A stretch of DNA of 64,000 bases from Verrucomicrobiota bacterium (GCA_042565725.1 JBHORK010000001.1:4995-68994), one strand, 5' to 3'; counted from the first letter of the stretch, positions 1 to 38,937 are shown. Translations and numbers: made by a program. Notes: generated by a model not told the origin, from the letters alone.

Positions 1-234
1 ATGCATGGCGATTGGTGCGGGAATAGCTTCATGTAAATCTGCCAGACCGCAAATATGGTCAAAATGACCATGAGTCAGCAAGTAAGCTGCAACGGAGAGA
101 TTATGCTTTTTGAGGACCGCAAGAATTTTAACAGCTTCAGCGCCGGGATCTATCACAATGGCCTGTTCGGAATTGCCCCAGACCAGATAGCAGTTAACCT
201 GGAATTCTCCAACTATAATTGTTTCAATATTCAT
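1..234 (-). CDS. MBL-fold metallo-hydrolase (glyoxalase II-like), N-terminal part; gene continues past window start
   Basis: Reverse-strand translation from ATG at 234 gives MNIETIIVGEFQVNCYLVWGNSEQAIVIDPG...AYLLTHGHFDHICGLADL with the HxHxDH metal-binding motif of metallo-beta-lactamase-fold enzymes; no stop before the window edge, so it is absent from the ORF track. Confidence 0.55.
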   Translation of the reverse strand, partial: MNIETIIVGEFQVNCYLVWGNSEQAIVIDPGAEAVKILAVLKKHNLSVAAYLLTHGHFDHICGLADLHEAIPAPIAMH

Positions 235-363
235 AACACACCGTTAAAATTAAAGGGCGAAGGAGCTTAGTTCAATAAAATAGTCGACTAATCGGCATTT
301 TTCTTCATTATTGTCACAGTGAGTTGTGTTGGCTGCGGCAACATGGCCTCACACGGAATATTC

Positions 364-422
364 CTTGTCCCGCCAAAGCGGGATAAATTGGATACTTGTC
401 CCGCAGGGCGGGATTGGATATT
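364..422. repeat. Two tandem ~30-bp direct repeats, each containing a GC hairpin (TTGTCCCGC-N3/4-GCGGGAT...TTGGATA), 24 bp upstream of coaB
   Basis: cttgtcccgccaaagcgggataaattggata then cttgtcccgcagggcgggattggatatt; each unit has a 6-bp stem tcccgc/gcggga. Confidence 0.6.
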
Positions 423-445
423 CAATCTGATATATTCATCTAACA

Positions 446-1075
446 ATGAAAATACTCATTACAGCAGGCCCTACCAGGGAGCCGATTGATCCGGTGCGAT
501 TTATCAGTAATCGTTCTTCAGGCAAAATGGGGTATGCCGTGGCAAATGCCGCGATTGAGAGTGGTCATGAAGTTGTTCTTGTTTCAGGGCCGGTGTCTTT
601 GCCGGTACCTGCCGGAGCCGTGTTTATCAAGGTGACAACCGCGGAGGAGATGTATCAGGCTGTGCAGGATCAAATTGACTGGTATGACGTGCTGATTATG
701 ACTGCGGCCGTTGCTGATCGGCGTCCGGCGAAGGCCTCGAAGAATAAAATTAAAAAAGACCGGATGGAGTCTTTTATTGAATTAACACCTACTGCTGATA
801 TTCTTTACGCCGTACGCGATCAGAAAAAAGACCGTTTGCACATTGGGTTTGCGGCTGAAACAGACAACATTATCGAGGAAGCTCGCCGGAAGCTCGTGAA
901 AAAAAGACTTGATCTGATAGTTGCGAATGATGTAACTAGGCCAGATTCGGGATTTGAGACCGATACAAACAAAGTTACGTTCATAACACGCTCGGGTCTG
1001 CCCTTGGAACTTCCTGTTATGAGTAAACACGAAGTGGCTGTTAATATCCTTGAATGGATAGAAGAAAACGCATAG
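446..1075 (+). CDS. coaB: Phosphopantothenate-cysteine ligase, standalone CoaB domain (no fused CoaC)
   Basis: N-terminus [29 protein letters not shown] matches the start of the CoaB half of bifunctional Dfp/CoaBC; 209 aa is the CoaB domain only. Confidence 0.8.
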
Positions 1076-1090
1076 GTTCGTATTTCTAAA

Positions 1091-2614
1091 ATGAAAGAAC
1101 GCGAACACTGGAAAAATAGATCGATTTTTATTATGGCCGCTGTTGGGTCGGCGATCGGTCTGGGTAATCTCTGGCGGTTTCCATATATTGCCGCTCAAAA
1201 CGGGGGAGGGGCTTTTCTGGTTCCATACTTCCTGGCCCTGCTCACTGCCGGCATTCCTATCATGATTATTGAATATGGGCTTGGTGTCCGCTCTCAGGCT
1301 TCCGCAAACATTGCGCTTGGCGCAGTTGACCGTAGATTCAGGTTTGTCGGTTGGTTGGCTATCATGGGGGCCTTTGCGATCAATATATATTATTGTGTCG
1401 TGATGAGCTGGACCTGGTGCTCTCTTTTTGACGTGGGAACAATTACGCAATGGGCCGATAGTATTTCAACATCAGGGCAGCATTTTAAGACTCAGTTATT
1501 GCAGCGGTCAAGCGGTGTTTGGCAGTTTGAGGGAATACGCTGGCCGATTCTTGCAGGTCTTGTTGTTACCTGGATCACAATTTGGCTGATAATAAAGAGC
1601 GGTCTTGGGAAAATAGGGAAAGTACTCCTTTTTACTGTTCCAGTGCCGGTTGTTCTTATTTTGGTTCTTGTCGTGCGCGGATTAACCCTGGAGGGGGCGC
1701 AAACCGGACTTAACTACTTTCTTTCTCCGGATTGGTCAAAGCTGGCCGATCCGAATGTATGGCTTGAAGCTTATGGGCAGGTTTTCTTTTCGCTTTCCGT
1801 TGGCTTCGGAACAATGATCGCGTATTCGTCGTTTATGCCGCGCAATACGGAAATACCTAATTCTGCGGCTATCACTTCTTTTGCAAACTGCTCTTTCAGT
1901 TTTTTGGCAGGTTTTGCTGTTTTCAGTGTTTTAGGCTATTTTGCCGTGGCCACAAATACTCCGATTGAAAATGTTGTAAGTGTTGAGAACGTGGGGCCGG
2001 GCCTCGCTTTTGTTATTTATCCTGCTGCTCTTGCAACGCTTCCCGTTTGGGTTAAAGGTTTTGCTTTTCTCTTTTTTCTTACGCTGCTTCTTCTGGGTAT
2101 TGACTCCGCTTTCAGTTTGCTTGAAACTGTCAGCGCAGCCTTGACGGATAAGTTTGATTTTTCACGTACAAAGTCGACGACAATAGTTGCTGTTATAAGT
2201 TTAGTGCTGGGACTTCCATTTGTAACCGGTGCAGGTCTTTACTGGCTGGACATTGTTGATCACTTTCTTATGAAATATGTAATTACCTTTGTTGCAATCA
2301 TGGAATGCATTATTGTCGGCTATTTTCTGGGCATTAAGAAATTTGCCTCCGAGATAAATCGAACAGCAGAAATCAAGCTGGGTCTTGTTTTTGCGATCAT
2401 GGTTAAATTTGTTACTCCTGTAATACTTGCTGTTACCATGGTGTTGTCATTTTACACAGAAGTAAAGGAGCCGTATGGAGGATATCCTCAATCGGCCATA
2501 TGGATAATAGGTGTGGGTACTCTGTTGTTGCTAATCGTTGTTTCTCTGATCTTGTCAACTGTTCGTACCGATACGGACAGGGAACGTGAGCGGGGCGTGC
2601 GGGAAATAAATTGA
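1091..2614 (+). CDS. Neurotransmitter:sodium symporter (NSS/SNF) family transporter
   Basis: Hallmark GNLWRFPY motif near N-terminus; about 12 predicted TM segments; 507 aa. Confidence 0.85.
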   Translation: MKEREHWKNRSIFIMAAVGSAIGLGNLWRFPYIAAQNGGGAFLVPYFLALLTAGIPIMIIEYGLGVRSQASANIALGAVDRRFRFVGWLAIMGAFAINIYYCVVMSWTWCSLFDVGTITQWADSISTSGQHFKTQLLQRSSGVWQFEGIRWPILAGLVVTWITIWLIIKSGLGKIGKVLLFTVPVPVVLILVLVVRGLTLEGAQTGLNYFLSPDWSKLADPNVWLEAYGQVFFSLSVGFGTMIAYSSFMPRNTEIPNSAAITSFANCSFSFLAGFAVFSVLGYFAVATNTPIENVVSVENVGPGLAFVIYPAALATLPVWVKGFAFLFFLTLLLLGIDSAFSLLETVSAALTDKFDFSRTKSTTIVAVISLVLGLPFVTGAGLYWLDIVDHFLMKYVITFVAIMECIIVGYFLGIKKFASEINRTAEIKLGLVFAIMVKFVTPVILAVTMVLSFYTEVKEPYGGYPQSAIWIIGVGTLLLLIVVSLILSTVRTDTDRERERGVREIN

Positions 2615-2625
2615 GGTAGGCTGAT

Positions 2626-2754
2626 ATGGAAGCTAAAGCAATTATAATGGCGCTGGCAGGAATTTTTCTTCTCTACGGCGGCTTAATATTCTGTATTGCT
2701 ATCGCGTGGTATCATGGTCGTAATCCTGAGAAAAATAATAACGACAAAAAATGA
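2626..2754 (+). CDS. Unannotated 42-aa single-TM small membrane protein immediately downstream of the NSS transporter (possible transporter accessory subunit)
   Basis: ATG at 2626 preceded by aggtagg; MEAKAIIMALAGIFLLYGGLIFCIAIAWYHGRNPEKNNNDKK; hydrophobic helix plus charged tail; 12 bp after the transporter stop, same strand. Confidence 0.4.
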   Translation: MEAKAIIMALAGIFLLYGGLIFCIAIAWYHGRNPEKNNNDKK

Positions 2755-2786
2755 TTCAATCCCGGCGGCTAATAGCCGAAGTACAC

Positions 2787-3437
2787 TCACATTGTAAGCC
2801 AGTCGTAAAGAGTTGAAAGCATTCCGATAAAGGTCTTCGTAATCACAATAAGACTGTGTGGTCCTATTGCAACAAGAATTGCGCCGAAAAGGGCCCGCAG
2901 GTAGCAGTTGCCTTCTATGACAAAGAAATAAAAGAACGAATAAAATGGAACCATCAAACACAATAGTCCATTGAACCAGGAATCCTTGAAACCAAGTATT
3001 ACTATGAAAACATGAAACCCCGCAACTATGACCGGGCCAATATAATTGATGAGTTCGGTCGTCTCATCGGAAAAACCGCCTTTGTATTTCATGGATGCCA
3101 TGATTGAAGCGAGTACTGCAAACAGGATCACGCTTGTTATAATATGGAAATTGTTGAGTTGAATCGTTTTCTTCTTTATTACGATGTTGTGAAAACGCCA
3201 TAACTTTTTACGAGGCTTTGTCTTTTTCTTGGCCTGGGGCTGACTGACTTCTGTCTTTAGTCGAGGTTTTGAATTTAGGGAGTTCGGTTCAACAGGCCTG
3301 GATGGCTCAGCCGCTTCCTCGGCTTCAATGTCAATTTTATCGCCGCAAAACTGGCACTTAAGTAAATTAGTATCTACGTATTCCGACACTATATTTGTTT
3401 GAGCGCAATTAGGACATCCAAATTCAACATCTGCCAT
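2787..3437 (-). CDS. Zinc-ribbon (CPxC...CxxC) plus C-terminal 4-TM domain protein, paralogue B; unknown function
   Basis: Start MADVEFGCPNCAQTNIVSEYVDTNLLKCQFCGDKI (ATG at 3437, not the extended ORF start at 3515); P/E/K-rich linker; C-terminal hydrophobic domain with ...LCLMVPFYSFFYFFVIEG... Confidence 0.6.
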   Translation of the reverse strand: MADVEFGCPNCAQTNIVSEYVDTNLLKCQFCGDKIDIEAEEAAEPSRPVEPNSLNSKPRLKTEVSQPQAKKKTKPRKKLWRFHNIVIKKKTIQLNNFHIITSVILFAVLASIMASMKYKGGFSDETTELINYIGPVIVAGFHVFIVILGFKDSWFNGLLCLMVPFYSFFYFFVIEGNCYLRALFGAILVAIGPHSLIVITKTFIGMLSTLYDWLTM

Positions 3438-3447
3438 CTTGTTCCCT

Positions 3448-4128
3448 TTATTCGCTCCACACATCGCCGCCGCCGGAAGCGATCCATGCTGTAATCTTGC
3501 TGAAGATGACAGCAATCCAGCCTGCCAGCACTATAGAGCTGTCTTGACCGATTCCTATCAATATTCCTCCGAAAACAGCCCGCATATAAAAATCGTCTGA
3601 TATGGAGAATAGGTAGTACAGGGAATAGAATGGAACCAGCAGACATAATGCACCCTGAAACATGGAATCCTTAAAGGCTTTAAGCACGATAAGAATGTGG
3701 CCCGCTATTACGAGGATTGGTCCATATAAACCGAAATACAGAATGCAGTCAGAAGTGAATGCCGATTGATATCTCAAATAAGCCATAAGGCCTCCCAATA
3801 GGATGAAGGTAATCCATGAGCCGCCATGGCGGGTAATTACAAACTTACGCTTTGGCTGTAGTTCATTGGCAGCTCTTTGGGAAATCCACCATTGCCTTTC
3901 CTCCGGTTCAGTCTCGGCTGATTCTGCTGTTTCAGCTGACTCTGCTGTATCGGGCTGTTCTATGGGTTTGGGAGTCTTACGAAGAGAAGGTTTTGATTTA
4001 GCAGAACTGACTTTGGGCTTAGCCAGCTTTTCACCGCATGATTGGCAAGCAATTGAATCGGAATCAATAAATTCTGATACCGTGGTTACTTTCGAACACT
4101 TTGGGCATTTGATGCTGACATCGGCCAT
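3448..4128 (-). CDS. Zinc-ribbon plus C-terminal 4-TM domain protein, paralogue A; unknown function
   Basis: Start MADVSIKCPKCSKVTTVSEFIDSDSIACQSCGEKL (ATG at 4128 after GGAG); linker with SAETAESAET repeats; C-terminal domain alignable to paralogue B (ALCLLVPFYSLYYLFSISDDFYMRAVFGGIL vs LLCLMVPFYSFFYFFVIEGNCYLRALFGAIL). Confidence 0.6.
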   Translation of the reverse strand: MADVSIKCPKCSKVTTVSEFIDSDSIACQSCGEKLAKPKVSSAKSKPSLRKTPKPIEQPDTAESAETAESAETEPEERQWWISQRAANELQPKRKFVITRHGGSWITFILLGGLMAYLRYQSAFTSDCILYFGLYGPILVIAGHILIVLKAFKDSMFQGALCLLVPFYSLYYLFSISDDFYMRAVFGGILIGIGQDSSIVLAGWIAVIFSKITAWIASGGGDVWSE

Positions 4129-4156
4129 AGATAACTCCCGGGTTGAAGTAGTTTGG

Positions 4157-4393
4157 CTATTCGCCCAGAATCTCCTCAAGGTTTTTTTGGTGTTCGGCGC
4201 TTACTTTCTCCAGGGTCTCCCGTGCTTTTTTACCAGCTCTAACTGCAGTTCGTCCGGTGACGCCGTCTATGAAAGTTTCTGTTGATGATTTTTGGTCCGG
4301 CGATATTTCCCCGCTTTCTTTCTTTTCCTGCTCATTGGGTTTTCTGCAGCCGGTAAGTCCGTATAGAATTAATATTATTAAGAACAGTTTCAT
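4157..4393 (-). CDS. Small lipoprotein (78 aa)
   Basis: MKLFLIILILYGLTGC lipobox; hydrophilic K/E-rich remainder; start overlaps the HK stop by 4 bp (operon). Confidence 0.5.
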   Translation of the reverse strand: MKLFLIILILYGLTGCRKPNEQEKKESGEISPDQKSSTETFIDGVTGRTAVRAGKKARETLEKVSAEHQKNLEEILGE

Positions 4394-5928
4394 CTTATGG
4401 TTGTTCTTTGTGTGGCCGTGCTCTTCTGTGAAAGAACACGACGGATTGTTTCGAGAAAATGTTCAGAACGGAATGGCTTCTGGATGAATTCCCATGATCC
4501 GCGTCCCAGGTAGCCTCTTACATAGTCTCTTGAGAATCCTGATGTCAGGATGATAAGAGCTGTTGGGTCTATCGCGAATATTTCCTCTACGATCTTCTTG
4601 CTGTCTTTTCCCGGCATTATAACGTCAATAATTGAAAGTTTGATATCACCTGCGTGATCTTTGTAAAATGGAACGACTTTTTCAGGGTCTTTTAACGTAT
4701 GAACATGATAACCAGATTTTTGAAGAACGTCTCTAGCTTTGTCTAAGACTTCTTTTTTATCATCCGCCATAAGGATAGTTTCACCCCCTGCGTGTGCAAC
4801 GCGTTTTGCTTCTTTTTCTGCTTGAACTTTGGCTTTCGGAATGAACAGCCTGAAACTTGATCCGTGGCCGGGTTGACTTCTGACTTTTACATAACCTCCC
4901 CAGCGCTGGATGGAGCTTTTGAGCGCAGTTAAGCCGAGTCCGGTTGCAGAGCCTTGCTCTTTTGTTGAAAAGAAAGGCTCAAAGATACGATTTAAAATGT
5001 CTTTGGGTATTCCGCAGCCGGTATCGCGTATGCGTAGAACCACATATTTTTTCTTGCCGGCTACTTTTAGCGAAGTATCGATTAATATGTCGCCTCCGGA
5101 GGGCATTGCATCAGCGGCGTTAAAGAATAAATCAAGTATGCTGTCAAGAAGCTGGCTTTCATCAGCCATAACATAGGGTGTTTTTGTAAGATTCGGAGCT
5201 TTTAAAATTATTTTACGTTCATCGAAAGTAGCTTTAACCATGTTAATGGCGTTTTTAATTACTCTGCCTAATGGAATTGGTTTGATTTCCATTTCGCCGT
5301 TAATGTTGCTTGCTCGAGCAATGCTTAGCAGACGTTTCGGGATTTGTCCGGCATGTTCGGATGCCTGGAGAATGCTGAGCGCTTCCTCATATGCCTTGGT
5401 GTTCGGGATAAGGGTGTCGGCTATCGCTGACGCGTGAGACGATATAATCCCAAGCCAGTTAGTGAATTTAAGCGCTATGCTTTGTACAACATTTCCTATT
5501 GCTTCTATTTGCTGCTTGTTCCGGGTTTCCCTGTTTTTCAGCATTTTTTTGGTTGTATCGCTGAAAACAAACACACAACCTTCAATGCTGCTCCTGTACC
5601 CCATTATTGGAGAGAGTGTTCCTCTAATAATTATTTCTCGTTTATCAAGAGTAACCATTATTGTGTCTGGGAAGTTTCTGGGTTCGGAACTTTTATGGAA
5701 TGATAACGCTGTTGGAATCCTTACGGATGTACGCTTATTGTGATCGAAAAGCTGGAATAATTCCTTCTGGGGCTTACCAAGGAACGATTTCAGCTTTTGA
5801 CCGGTAAGCAACTCAGCATGGTAGTTCATAAATGTTATGAGCCCACCTTTGTCGGTGGCAATTACGGCCTCGCTCATGTATCTCAAAATCGAGCTTAACC
5901 ACTTGGCATCTTTGTATTTAGGGTCCAT
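4390..5928 (-). CDS. Hybrid sensor histidine kinase (PAS - HisKA - HATPase_c - C-terminal receiver)
   Basis: True start MDPKYKDAKWL at 5928 (the ORF-track N-terminal extension to 6150 looks non-coding); HATPase motifs DTGCGIP...GLGLTAL; C-terminal REC-like segment ILMADDKKEVLDKARDVLQKSGYHV...SIIDVIMPG. Confidence 0.8.
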   Translation of the reverse strand: MDPKYKDAKWLSSILRYMSEAVIATDKGGLITFMNYHAELLTGQKLKSFLGKPQKELFQLFDHNKRTSVRIPTALSFHKSSEPRNFPDTIMVTLDKREIIIRGTLSPIMGYRSSIEGCVFVFSDTTKKMLKNRETRNKQQIEAIGNVVQSIALKFTNWLGIISSHASAIADTLIPNTKAYEEALSILQASEHAGQIPKRLLSIARASNINGEMEIKPIPLGRVIKNAINMVKATFDERKIILKAPNLTKTPYVMADESQLLDSILDLFFNAADAMPSGGDILIDTSLKVAGKKKYVVLRIRDTGCGIPKDILNRIFEPFFSTKEQGSATGLGLTALKSSIQRWGGYVKVRSQPGHGSSFRLFIPKAKVQAEKEAKRVAHAGGETILMADDKKEVLDKARDVLQKSGYHVHTLKDPEKVVPFYKDHAGDIKLSIIDVIMPGKDSKKIVEEIFAIDPTALIILTSGFSRDYVRGYLGRGSWEFIQKPFRSEHFLETIRRVLSQKSTATQRTTIR

Positions 5929-6092
5929 GTTTGTTGATTTCCTCTTCTGTTGTAATTTACAACGCAGTATTTGTCTGGTCAAGACAAACGAGCCCTGAGG
6001 AATTTGCAATGTAACCCGTCCTGAGGCGGGCAAGCGCAAATGCGAAGGGGAATAGGGGCGGAAACGAGAAGGTCTGAGAATTAGGTCCCGAC

Positions 6093-6118
6093 ACGAAATA
6101 CGCTTCACGAGATACGAG
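6093..6118. repeat. Copy of dispersed motif GTATCTCGTGAAGCGTATTTCGT (reverse orientation), about 165 bp upstream of the HK operon start
   Basis: acgaaatacgcttcacgagatacgag; the same 17-26-nt motif recurs at 11031-11075 (degenerate tandem), 37672-37707, 37978-38002 and 38899-38937. Confidence 0.7.
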
Positions 6119-6298
6119 TTAGAATTCGCGGGATTTAAACCTATTTCCAAGCCAGAGCGGAATAAGAGTGGTTAACGCAGTGATAACAAACAGCCATACT
6201 CCCGCCCAGATCAAACCCGAGTACAGTTGCGAAAGACTGATTTTGTTGGTGAAGTGCAAATGGGATACAAATCCGAAAGGCAATATTACTGCCAGCAT
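6119..6298 (-). CDS. Small hydrophobic membrane protein (59 aa), hypothetical
   Basis: MLAVILPFGFVSHLHFTNKISLSQLYSGLIWAGVWLFVITALTTLIPLWLG...; the longer ORF-track version runs into the repeat element and is unlikely. Confidence 0.3.
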   Translation of the reverse strand: MLAVILPFGFVSHLHFTNKISLSQLYSGLIWAGVWLFVITALTTLIPLWLGNRFKSREF

Positions 6299-6313
6299 GA
6301 AGCATAAACTAGT

Positions 6314-6568
6314 CTGAACATTGCACGAACAAAACAGAATGTTTAATAAAAAGGGAATAACCACAGGGCGATATAAAGATTTTTTGAAGAAACAACAAAA
6401 CACAAATTGTAATCTTAGTTTTTGAGAGAATATTCTGTTTTGTTCGCCCGAAGGGTGAGTTCACAGCACGTAATCGCCTTTGTTCTCAAGGGTAAAGCGG
6501 TATGCTATACAGCGTTACCCTTGACGCCGCGGCGCTTCCGCACTGTGAACTCATGCAATGATCAGGCT
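6314..6568. repeat. ~255-bp dispersed structured repeat, copy 1 (MITE or sRNA-like); second copy at 25087-25346
   Basis: About 90% identical to 25087-25346 by eye; internal inverted repeats cgaacaaaacagaat / attctgttttgttcg about 100 bp apart, and hairpin caagggtaa(a/c)gcggtatg(c/t)tatacagc(g/a)ttacccttg. Confidence 0.75.
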
Positions 6569-6587
6569 AGGATAATGAATATACGTT

Positions 6588-7475
6588 TCACGGCCTTTGG
6601 GTGACTTCCAGAAGCTCAGATTGGATTTTTGAAAGTTCTGATTTGAGAGATGCAAACTTTGGGTTGTCAGTTAATTTTTTCGCGTTCCAGTCACTGTACT
6701 TTTTCTTCGCAGATTTAAAATCATCCACAAGTTTGATGTTTTTTCCTTTCATGCGACGCAGTTCGTCTGCTATCTCAATGCGTTCGGCACCTGTTGACGA
6801 GTCTCTTTTCTTTTGGAGGATTTCTGTTTTCTTCCAGAATTCATTATAAGTTTTTTTTGAAGTTTCATACTCTTCGGCGTATGGATTGTTGGATTTTATA
6901 AAAGCCTGTTGCTCTTTCAGCAGTGTTCTTAATTGCGCCGCGACTTTGGATTGGTCTGATCTCAGCTTTTTCTCCTCGGGATTTGCTGTATCCAGTGAGC
7001 CCGAACGTAGATCAAGATTTTCCGCTCGAATATATATGTTTGGCACAAGTCGGTTGTTATGATGGACGCTACACAGTGCCAGATTTTCTTTGCTTACTGT
7101 TTTTGTTTCGGACACTTCGACAAGTGTTCCGGGGGCGATTTTCCGTAAGAACTTGTAGGATTCATTGTATGCATTAGCGCCGGAGCTTTTTACCACACCC
7201 CATTTCAAGTGAGTATTAACGGCTGGTTTTTTTCCTGAGGTTTCGGAGGGAATGTCAATTTTCTCCAGGTCTGGCTTCTCCCAGAGGATCTGTTCAAGGT
7301 CTTCCTCGATTTTTGCAATTGTTTTGGTTGTTTGTCGGGGCCGGGGTTGAGTGGAACGCGTTTGATATACGCGTTCCTGGTTACGCAAACATCCAACGCT
7401 AAAGTAAATGGCTGTAGTGCCAGCAACGGCGACGATCAGGTATTGAATAATAAATTTTTTCCATGCATTTGTCAT
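6588..7475 (-). CDS. Hypothetical lipoprotein with coiled-coil, K/E-rich C-terminal half
   Basis: Signal peptide plus lipobox FSVGC; no recognisable catalytic motifs; possible SH3-like middle segment (low certainty). Confidence 0.5.
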   Translation of the reverse strand: MTNAWKKFIIQYLIVAVAGTTAIYFSVGCLRNQERVYQTRSTQPRPRQTTKTIAKIEEDLEQILWEKPDLEKIDIPSETSGKKPAVNTHLKWGVVKSSGANAYNESYKFLRKIAPGTLVEVSETKTVSKENLALCSVHHNNRLVPNIYIRAENLDLRSGSLDTANPEEKKLRSDQSKVAAQLRTLLKEQQAFIKSNNPYAEEYETSKKTYNEFWKKTEILQKKRDSSTGAERIEIADELRRMKGKNIKLVDDFKSAKKKYSDWNAKKLTDNPKFASLKSELSKIQSELLEVTQRP

Positions 7476-7498
7476 ATGTTGTCAGTTGTATGTAAAAA

Positions 7499-7771
7499 TT
7501 AATTTTCGGCTGACGATGATCGCAAGAGCCCTATTGCCGTAAGAATTCCAACTATACAGCCGAATAACAAATAAGCGAGAAGGAAACTCTGATTCTGTCC
7601 GATAAAAAGTGTCCATCCCCATTTGTATGCAAACAGATAAGCGGCAATAAGACCAACACGATTATACCTGCAGACCAGACATAACGCGAGAATCATAAGA
7701 AGAATAGAAATTTCCAGTGCTGGCAGTGTTAGATTGGCTTGGAGAAGAATCTTGAAAAAATCTTTGGTCAC
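7499..7771 (-). CDS. Small 3-TM membrane protein (90 aa)
   Basis: Three hydrophobic segments; sits between the lipoprotein and the protease pair on the same strand. Confidence 0.4.
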   Translation of the reverse strand: MTKDFFKILLQANLTLPALEISILLMILALCLVCRYNRVGLIAAYLFAYKWGWTLFIGQNQSFLLAYLLFGCIVGILTAIGLLRSSSAEN

Positions 7772-7899
7772 ACAGTTTCCTTTTTATGGGATGGATTACA
7801 AAATCAGTTTATTATGAATTAGCGGTTAATTGCAAGAATATTAAGGAATTTGCGCATGCGCAAATTCAAAAGGGGTAGTAGTAGGGAAGCCCGATCCCG

Positions 7900-9369
7900 T
7901 TATTTTTGGCTAACGTTCTGATAACGAAGTTTGGGTACTCGGTAGCGTTCTGATAATCTTGCGTTGGCCTCAGCAAGTGTTTCTGTGTCTAGAACCAGAT
8001 CTACGCCGATCGACTTGAGTGTAAGCCGCTCAATGCTTCCATCACGGTCAACAATTCCGAAAACGTCCGACATGTTTTGTATCTTTTTGCCGTTGATATG
8101 TGTGATTATTGAGCTGTAAAAATACTGATAACCAATATTTATCGGGTCAGAGAGAACAGACGAAAGTATTACAATGCGATCTCCTGCAGCATTAAGGGAT
8201 TTTTTCCGCGTTAAATATAAATGCACAAGTTCAGAATCAGCTTTGCTGCGCCAGTTCTCTCCAAAAGACTTGAGGTATTTTCCTGTCAGCTCTCTTATTA
8301 CGAGTCCGCCTTCCACAAGATATTCCGGCTGTTTACCCTCGGTGTTGTCAGGGATAAAAGAGTCGGAATCTAGCAAATGGTCCAATTGTATTTTGATGTT
8401 CTGAATCTTTTTATTGCGCATAAGTTGAACGGATACCGTGTCGCCGGGTTTATGTCTGCCGTTAATAAGATATGTAAACATCAGCCTGCCGAACTTTTCG
8501 TCTTTGTAATAGCCAAGATTGTCAATTGCATGGCCATCCAGGCTGAGTATTACGTCAAGAGGTTTCAGCGACTCGCGTGCCCCGGTTTCGGGCAGACATG
8601 ACAGAACGAGTATGCCGACTTCGTCCTTTCCGACTCCAAAATACGACCGCTTAACGGGATCAATAAGAGTGGACCATGTGAAGCCTGCGGACGCAATTCC
8701 TTCATATGGTTTTTTTTCAGCGTCTTTTATAAAACGATTTAGAACACAGTAGGGCAGTACATCTCCCGTGCGTGTGCTTCGGTTATATCTGATTACAAGG
8801 CCTGCAAGCTTACTGTCATATATCACTGCCGCTCCCATGCCGTTGACGTTCAGGTCGGTAAGCACGCTGAATGTAAGAGAAACGTGTGGTGCTTTAGGCA
8901 GATATTTCATTGCAATCTGGAACATCTTTGCTTTTCCCTGCTGAATTTTGAAAGTCTCACCAAATTGTATTATTTCAACTTCACTCTCAGCTGGTACGTC
9001 TTGCGCCAGACTCAGCGGAGTAATCCATGGGGCTTCGTTTGTGTCGGTGATAGTAAGCAAAGCTAAATTAGACTGGTAGTCGCATAATTCCACCTTCGCG
9101 TTGATCTTTTTTCCCGAGCCGGACCTTCGAAGTTCCACAAGGGTGTGGTTGCGAATTATACTCTCTGTCGTAATAACCTGTGATTTGCTGATCGCTACAC
9201 CATAGCCGTATCTAACACACGGCTTCCATTTTTGCCATGGTTTAAAAGGATTAAATTCCTGATATGTGGCAACTACCTGTACAACACTCTTTTCAAAATC
9301 ATCTGTGTATGCGAACTGCGCTGAAATAAAAATTAACAATATCAGGATTTTTGAGGATGAAAGCTTCAT
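7900..9369 (-). CDS. Trypsin-like peptidase paralogue lacking the catalytic serine motif (likely pseudoprotease), secreted
   Basis: Signal peptide; same architecture as the upstream gene, but the GNSGGP position reads NGMGAAV (no Ser); the two ORFs overlap by 4 bp. Confidence 0.6.
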   Translation of the reverse strand: MKLSSSKILILLIFISAQFAYTDDFEKSVVQVVATYQEFNPFKPWQKWKPCVRYGYGVAISKSQVITTESIIRNHTLVELRRSGSGKKINAKVELCDYQSNLALLTITDTNEAPWITPLSLAQDVPAESEVEIIQFGETFKIQQGKAKMFQIAMKYLPKAPHVSLTFSVLTDLNVNGMGAAVIYDSKLAGLVIRYNRSTRTGDVLPYCVLNRFIKDAEKKPYEGIASAGFTWSTLIDPVKRSYFGVGKDEVGILVLSCLPETGARESLKPLDVILSLDGHAIDNLGYYKDEKFGRLMFTYLINGRHKPGDTVSVQLMRNKKIQNIKIQLDHLLDSDSFIPDNTEGKQPEYLVEGGLVIRELTGKYLKSFGENWRSKADSELVHLYLTRKKSLNAAGDRIVILSSVLSDPINIGYQYFYSSIITHINGKKIQNMSDVFGIVDRDGSIERLTLKSIGVDLVLDTETLAEANARLSERYRVPKLRYQNVSQK

Positions 9370-10889
9370 TGTTTGTCCTTTACGGGATGCTTAGGAAACA
9401 TGTCGTTAAAATATTCAGGAGCCGACAATCCGTAACTGGACATTATTTCACTTTCAACTTTTTTTGATGCCGTTGCGTCGAGAACAAGAACATCATCCAT
9501 TCCAGCGAAACGCATCACATGAAATCCGTTTTGCGGACTGTTGATTGCTTTTTTTATGTCCGCAATGTTACAGATATGAATGCCGTTAATCTCTGTTACA
9601 ATGCCATTAAAGAAATAATTGGCATATGTGTTTACTTTGTGAGGAAGACGTCGGATCAGCACTACGAATTCGTCTCGATCTTCGTAAAGCTTATGCGTTT
9701 TGGCATACTGTGAATAGTAGAGCAGCTGTTGGCTGTTGTTGCCGGGATTTCCTCTCAAAGTGTTTAGATATGCCCTGTTGAAAGGCGAGAATATAAGTCC
9801 GCCAACCATGAAATATTCTGGAAGTTCGTCGTATACACGCCTGAAAGCATATGGGTCTTTGGGATTGGTCAGCGGGACGGTGACTTCAATCTCCTTTTTG
9901 TTGCGCCATACCTTGAAAATCACTGATTCGCCCCATTGTTTTTGTTCAAGAAGCTCCTCGAAGCGGACATTATTTCCATTGAAATCAACTGTGCCGTCGT
10001 TTTCTATTATGTGCTGGTCAACGGAGAGTAAAACGTCTTTTACTTCCAGAAGGTTAACCGCGCTTCCGAAAGGATCAAGATAATATACGGCAACACCGGT
10101 CTTTGATGCCGGCAATCCAAGGCTTTTGTGGAGAGCAATGTTGTGTAATTCAATCCATGAAGCACCAAGCTCCGGGTAGCCGTTGTAATCACCATCTTTA
10201 ATATCCTCCAGGAAATGATTGATTACAGGGATTGGTATGGCGTATCCAATATTATCTGATTCAGCTAAACCCTGGAAGGCCAGGCCGACCACTTTGTCTT
10301 TGAAAATAATCGGACCTCCGCTGTTACCTGGATTGATGGCTGCGTCAACCTGTAGAACCAGGTGCTGGTCAATCCCGCTGTGTGAGTAAGTGCTGTAATC
10401 TATGCGTGACACGATACCCCTCGTTATTGAAAGACGGATACCTCCTCTGGGGTAGCCTAAGACCGTGACTTCATCATTCAAGCGCGGGAGTTGCTTCGCG
10501 AAAGTAACAGGACTGGTTCCTTTGAAGAACGATGGGTCGTCAACCGAAAGTATCGCCAGATCACAATCATGCCCGCTGAAACTGACTCGTGCTCTGTATT
10601 TTTTTGCGTCACCGTTTTTCTGGACCTGTAGAAATTTTACGTCGGACACAATATGTGCATTGGTTAAAATGCGGCGTTTATCAATGATGAAACCCGTGCC
10701 GTTTCCTTTTATCTGAAAGCCGCTTTGCCATGGCATGGAATAATCCGCCCGCTGGATCGTGGCGTATATTTTAACAACAGAATTACGCAGTGATTTTCGT
10801 CCGAATGCGGCATAAGCGTTTCCGGTGAATTCGGCTAAAACCGATAACAGCAAGAGAGATATCAGCCATTTTGCAGTTGATTTGTTCAT
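9366..10889 (-). CDS. Secreted trypsin-like serine protease (S1C/DegP-like catalytic domain plus C-terminal beta-rich/PDZ-like region)
   Basis: Signal peptide; catalytic His in ILTNAHIV, Asp in DCDLAIL, Ser in NPGNSGGPI. Confidence 0.8.
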   Translation of the reverse strand: MNKSTAKWLISLLLLSVLAEFTGNAYAAFGRKSLRNSVVKIYATIQRADYSMPWQSGFQIKGNGTGFIIDKRRILTNAHIVSDVKFLQVQKNGDAKKYRARVSFSGHDCDLAILSVDDPSFFKGTSPVTFAKQLPRLNDEVTVLGYPRGGIRLSITRGIVSRIDYSTYSHSGIDQHLVLQVDAAINPGNSGGPIIFKDKVVGLAFQGLAESDNIGYAIPIPVINHFLEDIKDGDYNGYPELGASWIELHNIALHKSLGLPASKTGVAVYYLDPFGSAVNLLEVKDVLLSVDQHIIENDGTVDFNGNNVRFEELLEQKQWGESVIFKVWRNKKEIEVTVPLTNPKDPYAFRRVYDELPEYFMVGGLIFSPFNRAYLNTLRGNPGNNSQQLLYYSQYAKTHKLYEDRDEFVVLIRRLPHKVNTYANYFFNGIVTEINGIHICNIADIKKAINSPQNGFHVMRFAGMDDVLVLDATASKKVESEIMSSYGLSAPEYFNDMFPKHPVKDKQ

Positions 10890-11231
10890 GCTTAGCTGGG
10901 CATACTACTTTTAATTGTGTGAAAAAGCACGATAAAAATCAGGAGCCAGGATTCAGGAATCAACAGCCTTCAGCCTAAACAACCTGATGATGCCGCACAA
11001 CCGTTAGACGAACAGTGCAGGATATTTGAATATCGAACGAAATACGAAATACGCTTAACGAAATACGCACTTATTATGAGTATTCAGGATAGAGATTATA
11101 TGAAGCCAGAGTATCGTCCGCGTTCTTGTAAAAAAGACTCTGTATCTTTAAAAAACCGGTTTCTTTTTCTTCTGTGGAGAATTAAACGATGGTTGCTTTC
11201 GGGCTTCAGTAGAGGGAAGTAACGAACGCTA

Positions 11232-11789
11232 TTAAAACGAGCGTTTTACCCAGATTCCATATTCCAGATCATCTAAGTCAAATTTGTCTATATCACCCCA
11301 GTCTTCAAATACGTAATAGACCTGAAAATCCATCTGGAGTCCGAAAAGGGGCATCTGAAGTCCGGTAATTAATTGCCAGTATAAATCCGTCCAGTCGCTG
11401 CCTTCATTCTCGTCATCAATATAACTTTGAAGAACACCAATGCCGCCTTGCCACATCCTGTCCTTGAAGATCAGATCTGCATGAGGAGTTATAACCGAAT
11501 CTACTGTGTTTGTTCCTGTGACATCGTTAGCGTAGTTTGCGCCGAACTGCCAGTAGGCGGACTCGTTATGGTACTCATAGGCGAGTCCGTATGAAATATC
11601 TCCTTTGTCGAACGGCAGAGTTACAAACTCAGAATGTTCGGCATGAGTTCTGCCGCCTATAGCGAGCGTATGTGTGCCCGCCTTTGCAGGAGCGATGTTT
11701 GAAAACAAGAATATTGACGCTGACAAAAGTAGAAGTTTGTTTTTTATTTTCACATTTATAATGCTACCTGCAGTATAAATGGATTGCAA
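11232..11789 (-). CDS. Small outer-membrane beta-barrel protein (185 aa)
   Basis: Signal peptide (SASIFLFSNIAPAKA); alternating hydrophobic pattern; aromatic-rich; C-terminal Phe (…WVKRSF) typical of OMP beta-signal. Confidence 0.6.
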   Translation of the reverse strand: MQSIYTAGSIINVKIKNKLLLLSASIFLFSNIAPAKAGTHTLAIGGRTHAEHSEFVTLPFDKGDISYGLAYEYHNESAYWQFGANYANDVTGTNTVDSVITPHADLIFKDRMWQGGIGVLQSYIDDENEGSDWTDLYWQLITGLQMPLFGLQMDFQVYYVFEDWGDIDKFDLDDLEYGIWVKRSF

Positions 11790-11801
11790 GATAATTGTCA
11801 G

Positions 11802-11823
11802 GAATTCGCGTTAACGCGAATTC
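11802..11823. promoter_or_regulatory. 22-bp perfect palindrome gaattcgcgttaacgcgaattc, about 95 bp upstream of the sigma-54 promoter of the gspE operon (candidate enhancer/UAS)
   Basis: Exact dyad symmetry read directly; lies in the divergent intergenic region between the OMP gene and gspE1. Confidence 0.5.
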
Positions 11824-11918
11824 TGCATTTCGAATTGGCATAATACAACAAAGTATGCAATAATAATTCATTGAAAATCATAGTGTATGTCTGAAGATAT
11901 TTGTTTTGTAACGCCGTT

Positions 11919-11934
11919 TGGCACATAATCTGCT
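11919..11934 (+). promoter_or_regulatory. Sigma-54 (-24/-12) promoter TGGCAC-N5-CTGCT upstream of gspE1
   Basis: tggcacataatctgct: GG and GC separated by 10 nt, consensus TGGCAC-N5-TTGCW; about 48 bp upstream of the ATG at 11983. Confidence 0.65.
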
Positions 11935-11982
11935 TTTTTTTTAATGGTAAGCTGAGCGGTGTTTTTTTAGAGAGCATTAATA

Positions 11983-13710
11983 ATGACGAAAAAACCTTAC
12001 TCTGAGAAGATTTCCGGTATTCTGATCAAACGCAAGGCAATAGAATTGCCAGCACTCCAGGATGCGGAACAGGAAGCTCATTCATCAGGTGAACGGCTTG
12101 AGAAGTATCTCGTTGATAAACAACTCGTCTCACATGCAGATATGGCTCTGGCAATATCGGAATATCTCGGTATGCCGCCAATTGCGTTGTCTCACTTTAC
12201 TCCTGATCCTCAACTTTCAGCTCTCATTCCTCGCGAGGTGCTGGTAAGGCACAAGGCTATTCCTGTTTCCAAGCTGGGACGAAGCCTTACGGTAGCTGTT
12301 GCAGACCCTTTTGATATTATCGCGCTAGATGAACTCCAGACCCTGACGGGTCTGGAAATAACCCCGCTTGTTGCATCGCGCAGGGAAATAGTGGAAACCA
12401 TGGAACGAATTTTCCCTAATGAGTCCGGAAATATAGATATTGAAGATGTTCTGAAAGAGGCCGATGCCGACCTTGAAGTCACCCATGAAAAAGTGGATGA
12501 AGATCAGGGTGAAAGTATTGATTCTATACTCGAAAGGGCTGAAGGTGCTCCGGTAGTTCGTATGGTCAGCATGATATTGCTCGAAGCGCTTAGACAAGGT
12601 GCCAGTGATATCCATCTGGAACCCCAAGAGAAGACCCTCCGTCTTCGATATAGAATAGACGGAACACTGATAAACAATCCGAGCCCTCCTAAACATCTGC
12701 AAGGCGCGGTTATCTCAAGAATGAAAATAATGTCCGGTATGGATATCGCAGAGAATCGTATACCGCAGGATGGACGTATAAAGATTCATGCTTTAGGAAA
12801 GGAAGTGGACCTTCGCGTAAATACTTTACCGACCATTTTCGGCGAAAAGATTGTCATGCGCTTGCTGGATAAAAGCGCGCTGTTTCCTAATCTTGCGGCG
12901 TTGGGATTGGACGAAGAAGCCTTTCGAGCCATGAGACATGCTATTGCTCAGCCAAATGGGGTTATCCTTGTAACCGGTCCCACGGGCAGCGGTAAAACCA
13001 CCACTCTTTATTCCTGTCTTATGGAATTAAATCAGCCTGAGGTTAACATCATTACTTGCGAAGATCCTGTTGAGTATCAGCTTCCGGGAATTAACCAAGT
13101 ACAGATTAATGCTTTTATTGGGTTTACATTCTCCTCAGCTCTCCGTTCAGTACTCAGGCAAAGCCCTGACATCATTCTTGTCGGAGAAATTCGTGATTCG
13201 GAAACAGCGGAAATAGCTATCAAAGCTGCGCTTACCGGTCACCTTGTATTGAGCACGCTTCACACCAATGACTCGGCAGGTGCAATTACACGATTAACTG
13301 ATATGGGTGTTGAACCATCACTTCTCGCTTCTTCTCTGATTCTGGCGCAGGCTCAACGTTTGATTCGTAAACTTTGTCCGGCATGCAAGAAGAAATCCGG
13401 GAAACTACCTCTCGATTTACTGAAATCGTATGATATAGCCCCTTCCTTTTTTGAAGGGGAGAAAATCTATGAGGCAAAAGGCTGCATAAAGTGCCGTAAT
13501 ACAGGATACAAAGGACGAATGGCTGTTATGGAAGTGTTGCCCGTTGATAAAGAGCTCAGGAAGGATATACTTCAAGGCTTGAGTGCTAAAGAACTTCTTA
13601 TTAAGGCTCAGGAAAAGGGTATGATATCTCTAAAAGATATAGGCATGCAACAGGTGAAAAAGGGCCAGACCAGTATTGAGGCGGCTTTACGTGTTACCGG
13701 TGGTGAATGA
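11983..13710 (+). CDS. GspE/PilB-family secretion ATPase with N-terminal GspE_N (MshEN-like) domain, copy 1
   Basis: Walker A GPTGSGKTTT; tetracysteine CPACKK...CIKCRNTGYKGR; N-terminal domain ISGILIKRKAIELPALQDAEQEA. Confidence 0.9.
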   Translation: MTKKPYSEKISGILIKRKAIELPALQDAEQEAHSSGERLEKYLVDKQLVSHADMALAISEYLGMPPIALSHFTPDPQLSALIPREVLVRHKAIPVSKLGRSLTVAVADPFDIIALDELQTLTGLEITPLVASRREIVETMERIFPNESGNIDIEDVLKEADADLEVTHEKVDEDQGESIDSILERAEGAPVVRMVSMILLEALRQGASDIHLEPQEKTLRLRYRIDGTLINNPSPPKHLQGAVISRMKIMSGMDIAENRIPQDGRIKIHALGKEVDLRVNTLPTIFGEKIVMRLLDKSALFPNLAALGLDEEAFRAMRHAIAQPNGVILVTGPTGSGKTTTLYSCLMELNQPEVNIITCEDPVEYQLPGINQVQINAFIGFTFSSALRSVLRQSPDIILVGEIRDSETAEIAIKAALTGHLVLSTLHTNDSAGAITRLTDMGVEPSLLASSLILAQAQRLIRKLCPACKKKSGKLPLDLLKSYDIAPSFFEGEKIYEAKGCIKCRNTGYKGRMAVMEVLPVDKELRKDILQGLSAKELLIKAQEKGMISLKDIGMQQVKKGQTSIEAALRVTGGE

Positions 13711-25086: not shown

Positions 25087-25346
25087 CCTGAATATTGCAC
25101 GAACAAAACAGAATGTTTAATAAAAATGGAATAAATACAGGGTGGCATAAAAATTCTCTAAAGAAATAACAAAATACAAATTGTAATCTTTAGTTTTTGG
25201 AGGGAATATTCTGTTTTGTTCGCCTGTTGGGTGAGCCCACAGCACAGAATCACCTTTGTTCTCAAGGGTAACGCGGTATGTTATACAGCATTACCCTTGA
25301 CGCCGCGGCGATTCCGCACTGTGAACTCATGCAATGATCAGGTTAG
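25087..25346. repeat. ~260-bp dispersed structured repeat, copy 2, ending 4 bp before the GT2 start codon
   Basis: Collinear with 6314-6568; same internal inverted repeats and hairpin. Confidence 0.75.
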
Positions 25347-37671: not shown

Positions 37672-37995
37672 TGTATCTCGTATTGCGTGAAGCGTATTTC
37701 GTATCTTGTTTTCCGCTTATTATAATTTCTTTATTAAATTTCTTGTCATTCGCGGTCGAAATCGGGATTGGGATCGCTATCGAGAAACAATATGGGACTT
37801 GGGTACGGGAAATGGGATGTTTGTCGTTTGAGAATAAGTGAAAGAACAATCTTCTTGTTATAAAACAGGGAAAATCGATTTCGATAGCGATAGCGATTTC
37901 GACGAGGTGTAACCATATGCCCAAATCCCTGAAGTTTCTTGTCTTAGTTTCTCCGCTTTTCATGTTTCCTTTTCACTCTTCACGAAATACGCTTC
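37672..37995. mobile_element. MITE-like ~325-bp structured element with perfect 17-bp terminal inverted repeats, inserted between wzt and wzm
   Basis: Left end cgtgaagcgtatttcgt, right end acgaaatacgcttcacg (exact reverse complement); nested internal inverted repeats gtcgaaatcg...atcgctatcga / tcgatagcgat...cgatttcgac; no ORF. Confidence 0.6.
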
Positions 37996-38898: not shown

Positions 38899-38937
38899 CG
38901 CGTATCTCGTGAAGCGTATTTTGTATCTCGTATATCG
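38899..38937. repeat. Copy of GTATCTCGTGAAGCGTATTT(T/C)GTATCTCG motif, about 45 bp upstream of the wzm start
   Basis: cgcgtatctcgtgaagcgtattttgtatctcgtatatcg. Confidence 0.65.

Follow-up and report, generated by a model that had tools for sequence, protein, structure and literature searches.

We analyzed a 64,000-nucleotide stretch of a Verrucomicrobiota bacterium genome (GCA_042565725.1, JBHORK010000001.1:4995-68994), referred to here as the window, and identified within a block of four minus-strand genes two tandem paralogs, ZrA and ZrB, that belong to a previously undescribed family of inner-membrane proteins found in Kiritimatiellae/Lentisphaerae-type bacteria of the Planctomycetes-Verrucomicrobia-Chlamydiae (PVC) superphylum. 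The family, which is new as a family, has a four-helix membrane domain as its functional core and resides in a conserved cell-envelope gene cluster in which a small lipoprotein gene is its commonest immediate neighbor (24-28 of 48 distinct loci). Homology searches, a structural model and comparison of gene order across related loci allowed us to define the anatomy, range and duplication history of the family, and lead us to propose, tentatively, that the lipoprotein and the four-helix protein act together in the envelope.

An undescribed membrane protein family

BLASTP aligned ZrA and ZrB over 223 residues with 32% identity (E=1e-41), bearing out the paralogy claimed in an earlier reading of this DNA made before any database search (the original prediction). 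The domain order given there, zinc ribbon followed by linker and four membrane helices, also holds. Both proteins start with MADV..CP.C and carry a second CxxCG knuckle, in agreement with the shared N-terminal CPxC...CxxCG ribbon described earlier, and the repeat noted in one linker is present in ZrA as two copies of TAESAE. The proposed common core of the membrane domain required correction, since LCL(L/M)VPFYS is found in both paralogs but the following 'YY' is not (LYYLF in ZrA, FFYFF in ZrB).

A search with a single sequence retrieved 75 homologs of ~205-280 amino acids, the best of them 53% identical to ZrA, all unannotated and exclusively from Kiritimatiellae, Lentisphaerae or 'Verrucomicrobia' metagenome genomes. 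Profile searching of 1.84 billion representatives identified 1939, 463 and 227 proteins at E≤1e-3, 1e-10 and 1e-30 respectively, and all 227 clusters at the strictest threshold came from the same three groups of genomes. When the profile was restricted to the membrane domain, the search again recovered this family and no distant relatives. No match to this domain was found in Pfam, NCBIfam, PADLOC or PDB, by sequence or by fold. Pfam recognized no domain in any of 66 members beyond weak zinc-ribbon matches, and scans of six cluster proteins together with 66, 18 and 20 family members against Pfam, NCBIfam and PADLOC returned nothing informative. The PADLOC models, which represent known anti-phage defence systems, gave marginal scores only (13.7 and 20.8 bits) and do not place the proteins among such systems, while PDB sequence searches with profiles gave zinc-ribbon and generic matches only. 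A literature search turned up no account of the family. The profile and fold searches thus returned no hit that would overturn the original statement that the paralogs fit no characterized family.

Members share the motifs AFKDS.FQG.LCLLVP.YS.YY, SDDFY.R and G.G.DS in the four-helix domain, all of which are carried by ZrA (in detail AFKDS.FQG, LCLLVP.YSLYY, SDDFY.R, GQDS and WIASGG). In ZrB the Cys4 ribbon and the FKDS.F.G.LCL.VPFYS core are retained, and D178/D179 (SDD to EGN), D196 (GQDS to GPHS) and the C-terminal WIxSGG have been lost.

Anatomy of ZrA and conservation of the membrane domain

The AlphaFold2 (AF2) model of ZrA had a mean predicted local distance difference test (pLDDT) score of 84.7, with values >90 across the membrane domain. 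The N-terminal region is a Cys4 zinc ribbon with two CxxC knuckles on β hairpins (strands at residues 3-7 and 14-18), the four cysteines of which (C8, C11, C28 and C31) are conserved in 98-100% of 216 aligned sequences. No specific Pfam zinc-ribbon family scored above cutoff, the best being PF01667 (eS27, residues 4-40) at 24.2 bits vs 24.5 and the rest falling far short of theirs; the ribbon also gave a weak PDB match to eS27 (E=8e-4) and local Foldseek matches to Rpo12, LysW and the Trx2 zinc finger. Residues 40-80 form a disordered linker of low pLDDT that cannot be aligned across the family, and a short amphipathic helix (79-89) is modeled at its end. The membrane domain comprises helices at 100-120, 126-154, 156-176 (kinked at P166 into 156-164 and 168-176) and 180-~197, followed by a C-terminal amphipathic helix to residue 217. 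A search of the domain for an internal two-helix repeat was negative.

Across the 216 sequences the net charge is +3.8 before the first transmembrane helix (TM1) and there is almost no Lys or Arg in the loop between helices 1 and 2; the N- and C-termini are therefore assigned to the cytoplasm, leaving only loops of 3-6 residues facing the periplasm. Conservation is concentrated in the membrane domain, where G159 (99%), P166 and R183 (98%), F108 (97%), A151 and Y172 (95%), L161 and Y168 (94%), D196 (93%), D178 (91%) and C162 (82%) are the prominent positions. The charged and aromatic residues among the conserved ones are grouped at the periplasmic rim (R119, Y120, Y171, Y172, D178 and R183) and at two cytoplasmic turns.

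Ribbon-less versions of 123-136 amino acids also exist, encoded directly 3′ of the lipoprotein gene in loci L037, L039, L054, L061 and L064, and 10 of the 12 loci with a fused AmgK/MurU gene (see below) encode such a version. The zinc ribbon is dispensable, and it is the four-helix domain that is the constrained part of the protein. On its ~60-residue disordered tether, the Cys4 ribbon would be a cytoplasmic accessory, used for docking or for regulation. The Myxococcus protein GltJ/AgmX likewise has an N-terminal cytoplasmic zinc ribbon, a flexible linker and then a membrane anchor, and its ribbon is a protein-docking module, to which the ribbon of the present family gave a marginal match (PDB 7zok, E=1.2). 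GltJ, however, combines one membrane helix with a periplasmic domain, whereas here a four-helix domain is the conserved core.

An old duplication with asymmetric loss

Every related locus has one copy of the family gene except the window and L041, a 1.6-kb metagenome contig in which a ZrA-type gene is followed, after a 12-nt spacer, by a ZrB-type gene and a convergent CoaB gene. Between the window and L041 the ZrA pair is 49% and the ZrB pair 46% identical, as compared with 30-39% for ZrA-to-ZrB comparisons within or between the two, and the members of each orthologous pair are sisters in the tree. The duplication therefore predates the split of the two genomes, and both copies have been retained. 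Following gene duplication in this lineage, ZrA kept all of the motifs and ZrB lost the conserved acidic residues. This asymmetric pattern of retention and loss is the expectation for an obligate heteromer with a degenerate subunit, and judging from the sequences a ZrA-ZrB heteromer with one degenerate subunit is likely.

Conserved gene neighborhood

To place the family in its genomic context 66 loci (L001-L067) were collected, and the window proteins together with other neighbors were mapped by tblastn. Removal of duplicates left 48 distinct loci, including the window, in which the sequence extends 300 nt or more upstream. Genes on the same strand follow a conserved order, with one or more PDZ proteases first, then p90 and p295, a variable slot, the lipoprotein gene and finally the zinc-ribbon gene, downstream of which lie CoaB, convergent in most loci, and then LactB, p150 and a GT1 glycosyltransferase. 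The lipoprotein gene is directly upstream of the family gene in 24 of the 48 loci, often with a 4-bp overlap, while in four more it lies upstream but is split off by a divergent GAF-kinase/regulator pair. A same-strand p295 gene is found upstream in 23 loci, immediately adjacent in 12 of these and farther off within the cluster in the other 11. Overlapping tblastn matches in L054, L061 and L064 had raised the suspicion of fusions between the lipoprotein and the membrane domain; the ORFs proved to be separate, often overlapping, genes.

The variable slot is occupied by an orthologous PAS kinase in eight loci (the window, L007, L008, L010, L012, L018, L046 and L051) and by a fused AmgK/MurU gene in 12, and is empty in some of the others. 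An intact ABC permease gene is also present upstream of the kinase in six of the eight (L012 is cut off and the window has only a relic), and NamZ was detected upstream of AmgK/MurU in six of the 12, where the contig reaches far enough. In a distance tree built from the membrane domain these contexts follow clades: the kinase loci are close relatives of the window plus one small clade, and the AmgK/MurU loci span about half of the tree. The AmgK/MurU fusion is ~650 amino acids in length and combines NTP_transferase and APH domains; examples are found in L037 (2608-5759), L039 (2633-5766), L028, L029, L035 and L060. The NamZ homologs start directly with the catalytic domain and have no signal peptide; they are therefore taken as cytoplasmic, which weakened the idea of an importer of N-acetylmuramic acid (MurNAc).

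In one subclade a GAF-type kinase (404 amino acids) and a response regulator (180 amino acids) are encoded divergently from the zinc-ribbon gene (L001 4092-5882, minus strand). This pair, which is also found in L008, L043, L044, L046 and L051, is inserted upstream of the zinc-ribbon gene and splits it from the lipoprotein and PAS kinase genes. The gap between the pair and the zinc-ribbon gene is ~115-135 nt in five distinct loci, and L043 has a wider one of 352 nt.

The window lipoprotein reads MKLFLIILILYGLTGC and has a signal peptide followed by the lipobox LTGC, which conforms to [LVI][ASTVI][GAS]C and predicts lipidation. An alignment of 20 distinct homologs encoded directly upstream of family members showed conservation of the lipobox Cys and of a ~45-residue C-terminal domain (S.xxT.IDGxTG(K/R)TAVxAGxKAxxxIxxIS), and none of the 20 sequences matched Pfam. 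Two further homologs, in L061 (1078-1338) and L064 (410-667), do not have the lipobox Cys and retain an N-terminal hydrophobic anchor, suggesting the inner membrane as the site of action of the small protein. p295 was modeled by AF2 as a membrane helix, a disordered stretch, a β domain (residues 91-158) and helical hairpins (166-293); it has no Pfam match, and a fold search gave generic coiled-coil matches only. p90, for which Pfam and NCBIfam likewise gave no match, was detected by tblastn in L008, L013, L020, L030, L031, L032 and L034. The PDZ proteases head the conserved cluster and both paralogs are kept upstream in many loci. The two have diverged, and are ~25% identical to each other across loci.

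A kinase homolog without its phospho-acceptor histidine

The first gene of the block in the window encodes a cytoplasmic protein in which Pfam identifies PAS (25.0 bits, cutoff 22.6), HATPase_c (78.6 bits) and REC (45.4 bits) domains. The N, G1, F and G2 boxes of the GHKL ATP-binding domain are all present (NAADA, DTGCGI, FEPFFSTK and GLGL) and align to CckA and ZraS, and the receiver domain has its Asp, Thr and Lys within segments (ADD, IIDVIMPG, LTSG and QKPF) that are conserved across orthologs. The phospho-acceptor His is absent. The H-box (~5470-5444) reads IALKFTNWL, placing Leu at the position of the His in CckA (VAHDFNNLL), ZraS (VAHEIRNPL) and LvrB (MAHEINNPL), and Pfam detected no HisKA domain in the protein. 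The PAS-containing hybrid kinase of the original prediction is thus correct as to PAS, HATPase_c and REC but not as to the canonical phospho-acceptor. Among seven orthologs the His is kept in four (L007, L008, L018 and L051) and has been lost independently in two, L010 having Arg and L046 Asn. On sequence grounds the window protein is a His-less kinase homolog that cannot autophosphorylate at the canonical site, although ATP binding and phosphorylation of its receiver domain would still be possible. Caulobacter DivL (PDB 4q20), which was among the kinase matches, similarly keeps the fold and the ATP-binding domain and has no His. The window protein differs from DivL in having Leu rather than Tyr at the site and in possessing a receiver domain with an intact Asp, and unlike the DivL-type loss its loss of His is recent and patchy among orthologs.

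The presence of the kinase gene had earlier been taken to mean that the paralogs form a signal input or output module. As a property of the family this did not survive the comparison of loci: the orthologous kinase is restricted to the window, its close relatives and one small clade and is absent from 40 of the 48 distinct loci, the slot holds AmgK/MurU (with NamZ) or nothing elsewhere, and in the window itself Leu replaces the phospho-acceptor. In half of the eight kinase loci, moreover, an opposite-strand two-component pair lies between the lipoprotein and zinc-ribbon genes, so that co-transcription with the kinase cannot hold there. Any coupling of the pair to the kinase-like protein may be lineage-specific, and the kinase-like gene itself would be a lineage-specific occupant of the variable slot.

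Possible functions of the lipoprotein and four-helix proteins

The explanation we favor, while accepting that it could well be wrong, is that the lipoprotein and the four-helix protein constitute an envelope module within an envelope gene cluster, in which the ribbon is accessory and the kinase lineage-specific, with a role in envelope or peptidoglycan turnover. The four-helix core would work with the small lipoprotein encoded upstream, probably via direct contact at the periplasmic rim, and the module would be part of the conserved cell-envelope cluster that runs from the PDZ proteases through p90, p295 and the variable slot to the lipoprotein and zinc-ribbon protein. This cluster appears to form an operon with cytoplasmic NamZ and the AmgK/MurU fusion in about a quarter of the surveyed loci. 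From the linkage of envelope cluster and salvage operon we infer a role in envelope/peptidoglycan turnover as a small oligomeric membrane complex, the connection to peptidoglycan being suggested by operon linkage that has long been retained in part of the family. The arrangement can be compared with AmgK-MurU recycling with NamZ, in that 12 of the 48 loci have the family gene as the last of an operon that also comprises p295, NamZ, the AmgK/MurU fusion and the lipoprotein gene. NamZ has been described as mostly missing where the AmgK/MurU route is present (PMC8054146); here, unlike in that pattern, NamZ and AmgK/MurU are adjacent and AmgK/MurU is fused, and the same paper describes no membrane component of the ZrA-family kind. 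In a stronger form of this proposal the lipoprotein and four-helix protein would be an unrecognized PVC peptidoglycan-recycling membrane component, for example a conduit or checkpoint for NamZ and AmgK/MurU, with optional ribbon coupling to cytoplasmic regulators and present in the window as a heteromer beside a His-less pseudokinase; we regard this form as a long shot.

A number of considerations weigh against the envelope module. CoaB, presumably unrelated, is conserved even more often than the module partners, and gene order conserved within one clade can reflect vertical inheritance and not function. Approximately 40% of loci have no nearby lipoprotein gene and ~75% have no nearby peptidoglycan-salvage genes, the window having no AmgK, MurU or NamZ gene in 64 kb. 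As the salvage enzymes are cytoplasmic (NamZ being without a signal peptide), they have no obvious need for this membrane protein. No experiment or homology links the membrane domain to any activity, and the proposed heteromer draws solely on the retention pattern and the asymmetric loss.

Alternatively, the lipoprotein and ZrA/ZrB could serve the soluble PAS hybrid kinase as a membrane-bound arm, for either sensing or output, with the ribbon docking on the kinase in the cytoplasm. The close packing and overlap of the four genes in the window, the recurrence of the kinase-lipoprotein pair in eight loci and the divergent GAF kinase and regulator of a related subclade, by which signaling genes recur nearby, are all in keeping with such an arm, as is the fact that the kinase has no membrane segment and would need a membrane partner for envelope sensing. 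The gene set of the window also parallels RcsF-IgaA-RcsC/D and NlpE-CpxA, combining a hybrid-kinase homolog with a small lipoprotein and with a polytopic inner-membrane protein that has a cytoplasmic domain. Unlike in the Rcs and Cpx systems, however, the ZrA-family membrane protein has minimal periplasmic exposure, the window proteins have no homology to any component (with no sequence similarity to IgaA, RcsF or NlpE), and the kinase is confined to eight loci and is His-less here. The 40 loci without the kinase, the opposite-strand genes that part lipoprotein from zinc-ribbon gene in four kinase loci, the loss of His in the window (Leu), L010 (Arg) and L046 (Asn), and the dispensability in at least 10 loci of the ribbon, which is the sole sizeable cytoplasmic part, make this explanation doubtful in our view. 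We consider a role for the four-helix domain as a small dimeric permease, flippase or channel similarly improbable; it would move a cell-wall-derived sugar or lipid-linked intermediate that feeds or complements AmgK/MurU, and the ribbon would gate it. Here too there are points in favor: polar and aromatic residues are strongly conserved in the membrane, helix 3 is proline-kinked, the size (~125 residues, four helices) is suitable, a diverged tandem pair occurs in the window and L041, tight operons with NamZ and AmgK/MurU occur in 12 of the 48 loci and the ribbon is dispensable. SMR pairs (EbrAB, YkkCD) and ArnE/ArnF resemble the present proteins in their ~120-residue four-helix domain, in their diverged tandem genes, suggesting a heterodimer, and in genomic linkage to cell-envelope sugar metabolism. 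They differ in that the ZrA family has no sequence or profile similarity to them and no conserved acidic residue in TM1, has an N-terminal zinc ribbon and a lipoprotein partner, and is a transporter only hypothetically. An hhalign comparison with EmrE gave 0.2% probability, there was no match to PF00893 or any other transporter family, TM1 (SWITFILLGGLMAYLRY) has no membrane-embedded acidic residue and the domain has no internal repeat. A lipoprotein partner would moreover be unusual for such transporters, and with NamZ cytoplasmic here a MurNAc-specific importer is not implied. Membership of the SMR/EmrE family was rejected for want of similarity and of the TM1 Glu, and that of the SemiSWEET/PQ-loop family for want of a three-helix bundle fold with a PQ motif.

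Least probable of all, and very unlikely in our estimation, is that ZrA and ZrB are membrane-tethered, anti-sigma-like regulators freed by regulated proteolysis, in which the upstream PDZ proteases would cleave and the ribbon be released to the cytoplasm. The layout of ZrA resembles the general one of zinc-binding anti-sigma factors, in which a long tether carries the zinc-binding domain at the cytoplasmic N-terminus, and two DegS/HtrA-like PDZ proteases head the cluster. The CxxC...CxxC ribbon differs, however, from the HxxxCxxC anti-sigma motif, no extracytoplasmic function (ECF) sigma gene is present in the cluster, or next to the family gene, in the annotated contexts examined, the periplasmic loops of 3-6 residues offer little to a PDZ protease, and it is the membrane domain that is conserved and the ribbon that has been lost in at least 10 loci. 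A zinc-binding anti-sigma factor, identified by HxxxCxxC and an adjacent ECF sigma gene, was accordingly rejected.

Locus layout and the region upstream of the kinase gene

The features of the window discussed here are listed in Table 1. The ORFs, strand and spacing of the four tightly packed genes were as originally predicted, with four base pairs (ATGA, 4393-4390) shared by the lipoprotein ATG and kinase TGA and a 10-nt gap between ZrA and ZrB; the spacer 5′ of ZrA is 28 nt and contains GGGAG. A minus-strand terminator scan found none within the four-gene block, and the region 3′ of ZrB folds no better than shuffled sequences. ZrB is identical to the NCBI entry 'hypothetical protein ACFLS1_00035 [Verrucomicrobiota bacterium]' and p295 is annotated by NCBI as hypothetical protein ACFLS1_00055 on the same contig, a locus-tag spacing that fits four intervening genes, with the permease relic receiving no gene call. 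The 42-amino-acid ORF 3′ of the SNF transporter is unlisted; NF033493 describes MetS-like small subunits of neurotransmitter:sodium symporter (NSS) transporters.

Table 1 Features of the window, with coordinates counted from its first nucleotide
Feature	Coordinates	Strand	Remarks
CoaB	446-1075	+	DFP 237 bits; convergent, downstream
SNF-family transporter	1091-2614	+	SNF 407 bits; convergent, downstream
MetS-like small subunit, 42 aa	2626-2754	+	NF033493 27.6 bits vs cutoff 25
ZrB, 216 aa	3437-2787	-	ORF; diverged tandem paralog
ZrA, 226 aa	4128-3448	-	ORF; single-copy family ortholog
ZrA four-helix membrane domain and C-terminal amphipathic helix, residues 100-217	3478-3831	-	
ZrA Cys4 zinc ribbon, residues 1-36 (C8, C11, C28, C31)	4021-4128	-	
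Small lipoprotein, 78 aa	4393-4157	-	ORF listing and sequence
Kinase homolog, 512 aa	5928-4390	-	ORF listing and sequence
Sigma-70-like site, TTGACC-17-TAAATT	5954-5987	-	Overlaps 6+5+6 inverted repeat TTGTCTGGTCAAGACAA; 26 nt 5′ of kinase ATG
Dispersed motif copy GTATCTCGTGAAGCGTATTTCGT	6093-6115	-	164 nt 5′ of kinase ATG
Permease relic, last 70 codons of ABC_tran_2-type gene	6122-6328	-	tblastn
Nested hairpin element, ~140 nt	6440-6590	-	Directly 3′ of p295 stop codon
p295	6588-7475	-	Conserved upstream cluster member
p90	7499-7771	-	Small hydrophobic protein between PDZ protease and p295
Two tandem trypsin-like PDZ proteases	9369-7900 and 10889-9366	-	PDZ_3 94.8 bits, PDZ_2 36.2 bits

The region 5′ of the kinase gene, labeled earlier simply as its promoter region, also holds the relic of an ABC permease gene (6328-6122) and a very stable hairpin element. 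The relic is 43% identical to residues 486-555 of the L001 permease (E=6e-12, tblastn). As the related loci L007, L008, L010, L018, L046 and L051 have this gene intact upstream of the kinase, a deletion removed the ABC genes in the window lineage. The sigma-70-like site is a consensus match only, such sites being no commoner than in shuffled sequences. The inverted repeat reported earlier at 5971-5987 does exist, but with arms of 6 nt, and at least one such site in 14 of 100 shuffles, it is weak evidence for an operator.

The dispersed 23-nt motif of the original prediction is real, with four copies in the window (6093-6115 and 11044-11066 on the minus strand, 37680-37702 and 38902-38924 on the plus strand) vs none expected. 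Conservation extends over a core of ~28 nt only (CGTATYTCGTGAAGCGTATTTCGTATC), with two direct CGTAT.TCGT half-sites. The copy at 11044-11066 is oriented like the kinase copy and lies 154 nt 5′ of the ATG of the first PDZ-protease gene. The motif may be a candidate regulator binding site, possibly a cis element shared by both halves of the cluster. The hairpin has a minimum free energy of -61.2 kcal/mol (z=-5.4), and none of 200 shuffles was as stable; a second copy is found at ~25210-25345 on the minus strand. Rfam gave no match in 1-12000. From its sequence and position the hairpin may mark a transcript boundary between p295 and the kinase gene.

Implications

Metagenome genomes commonly contain orphan membrane families, and the present finding is useful rather than surprising: as biology it is one more orphan membrane family, yet one with a specific and testable context. 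The locus also illustrates the caution needed with guilt by association, in that the kinase neighbor which suggested a signaling module is an insertion that is specific to the lineage and partly degenerate. The membrane domain is a clade-wide, well-conserved new domain of unknown function in a little-studied branch of the PVC superphylum. Its linkage to the lipoprotein, to the PDZ proteases and, in about a quarter of loci, to NamZ and AmgK/MurU offers a concrete and testable starting point in the search for an unrecognized membrane step of cell-wall turnover.

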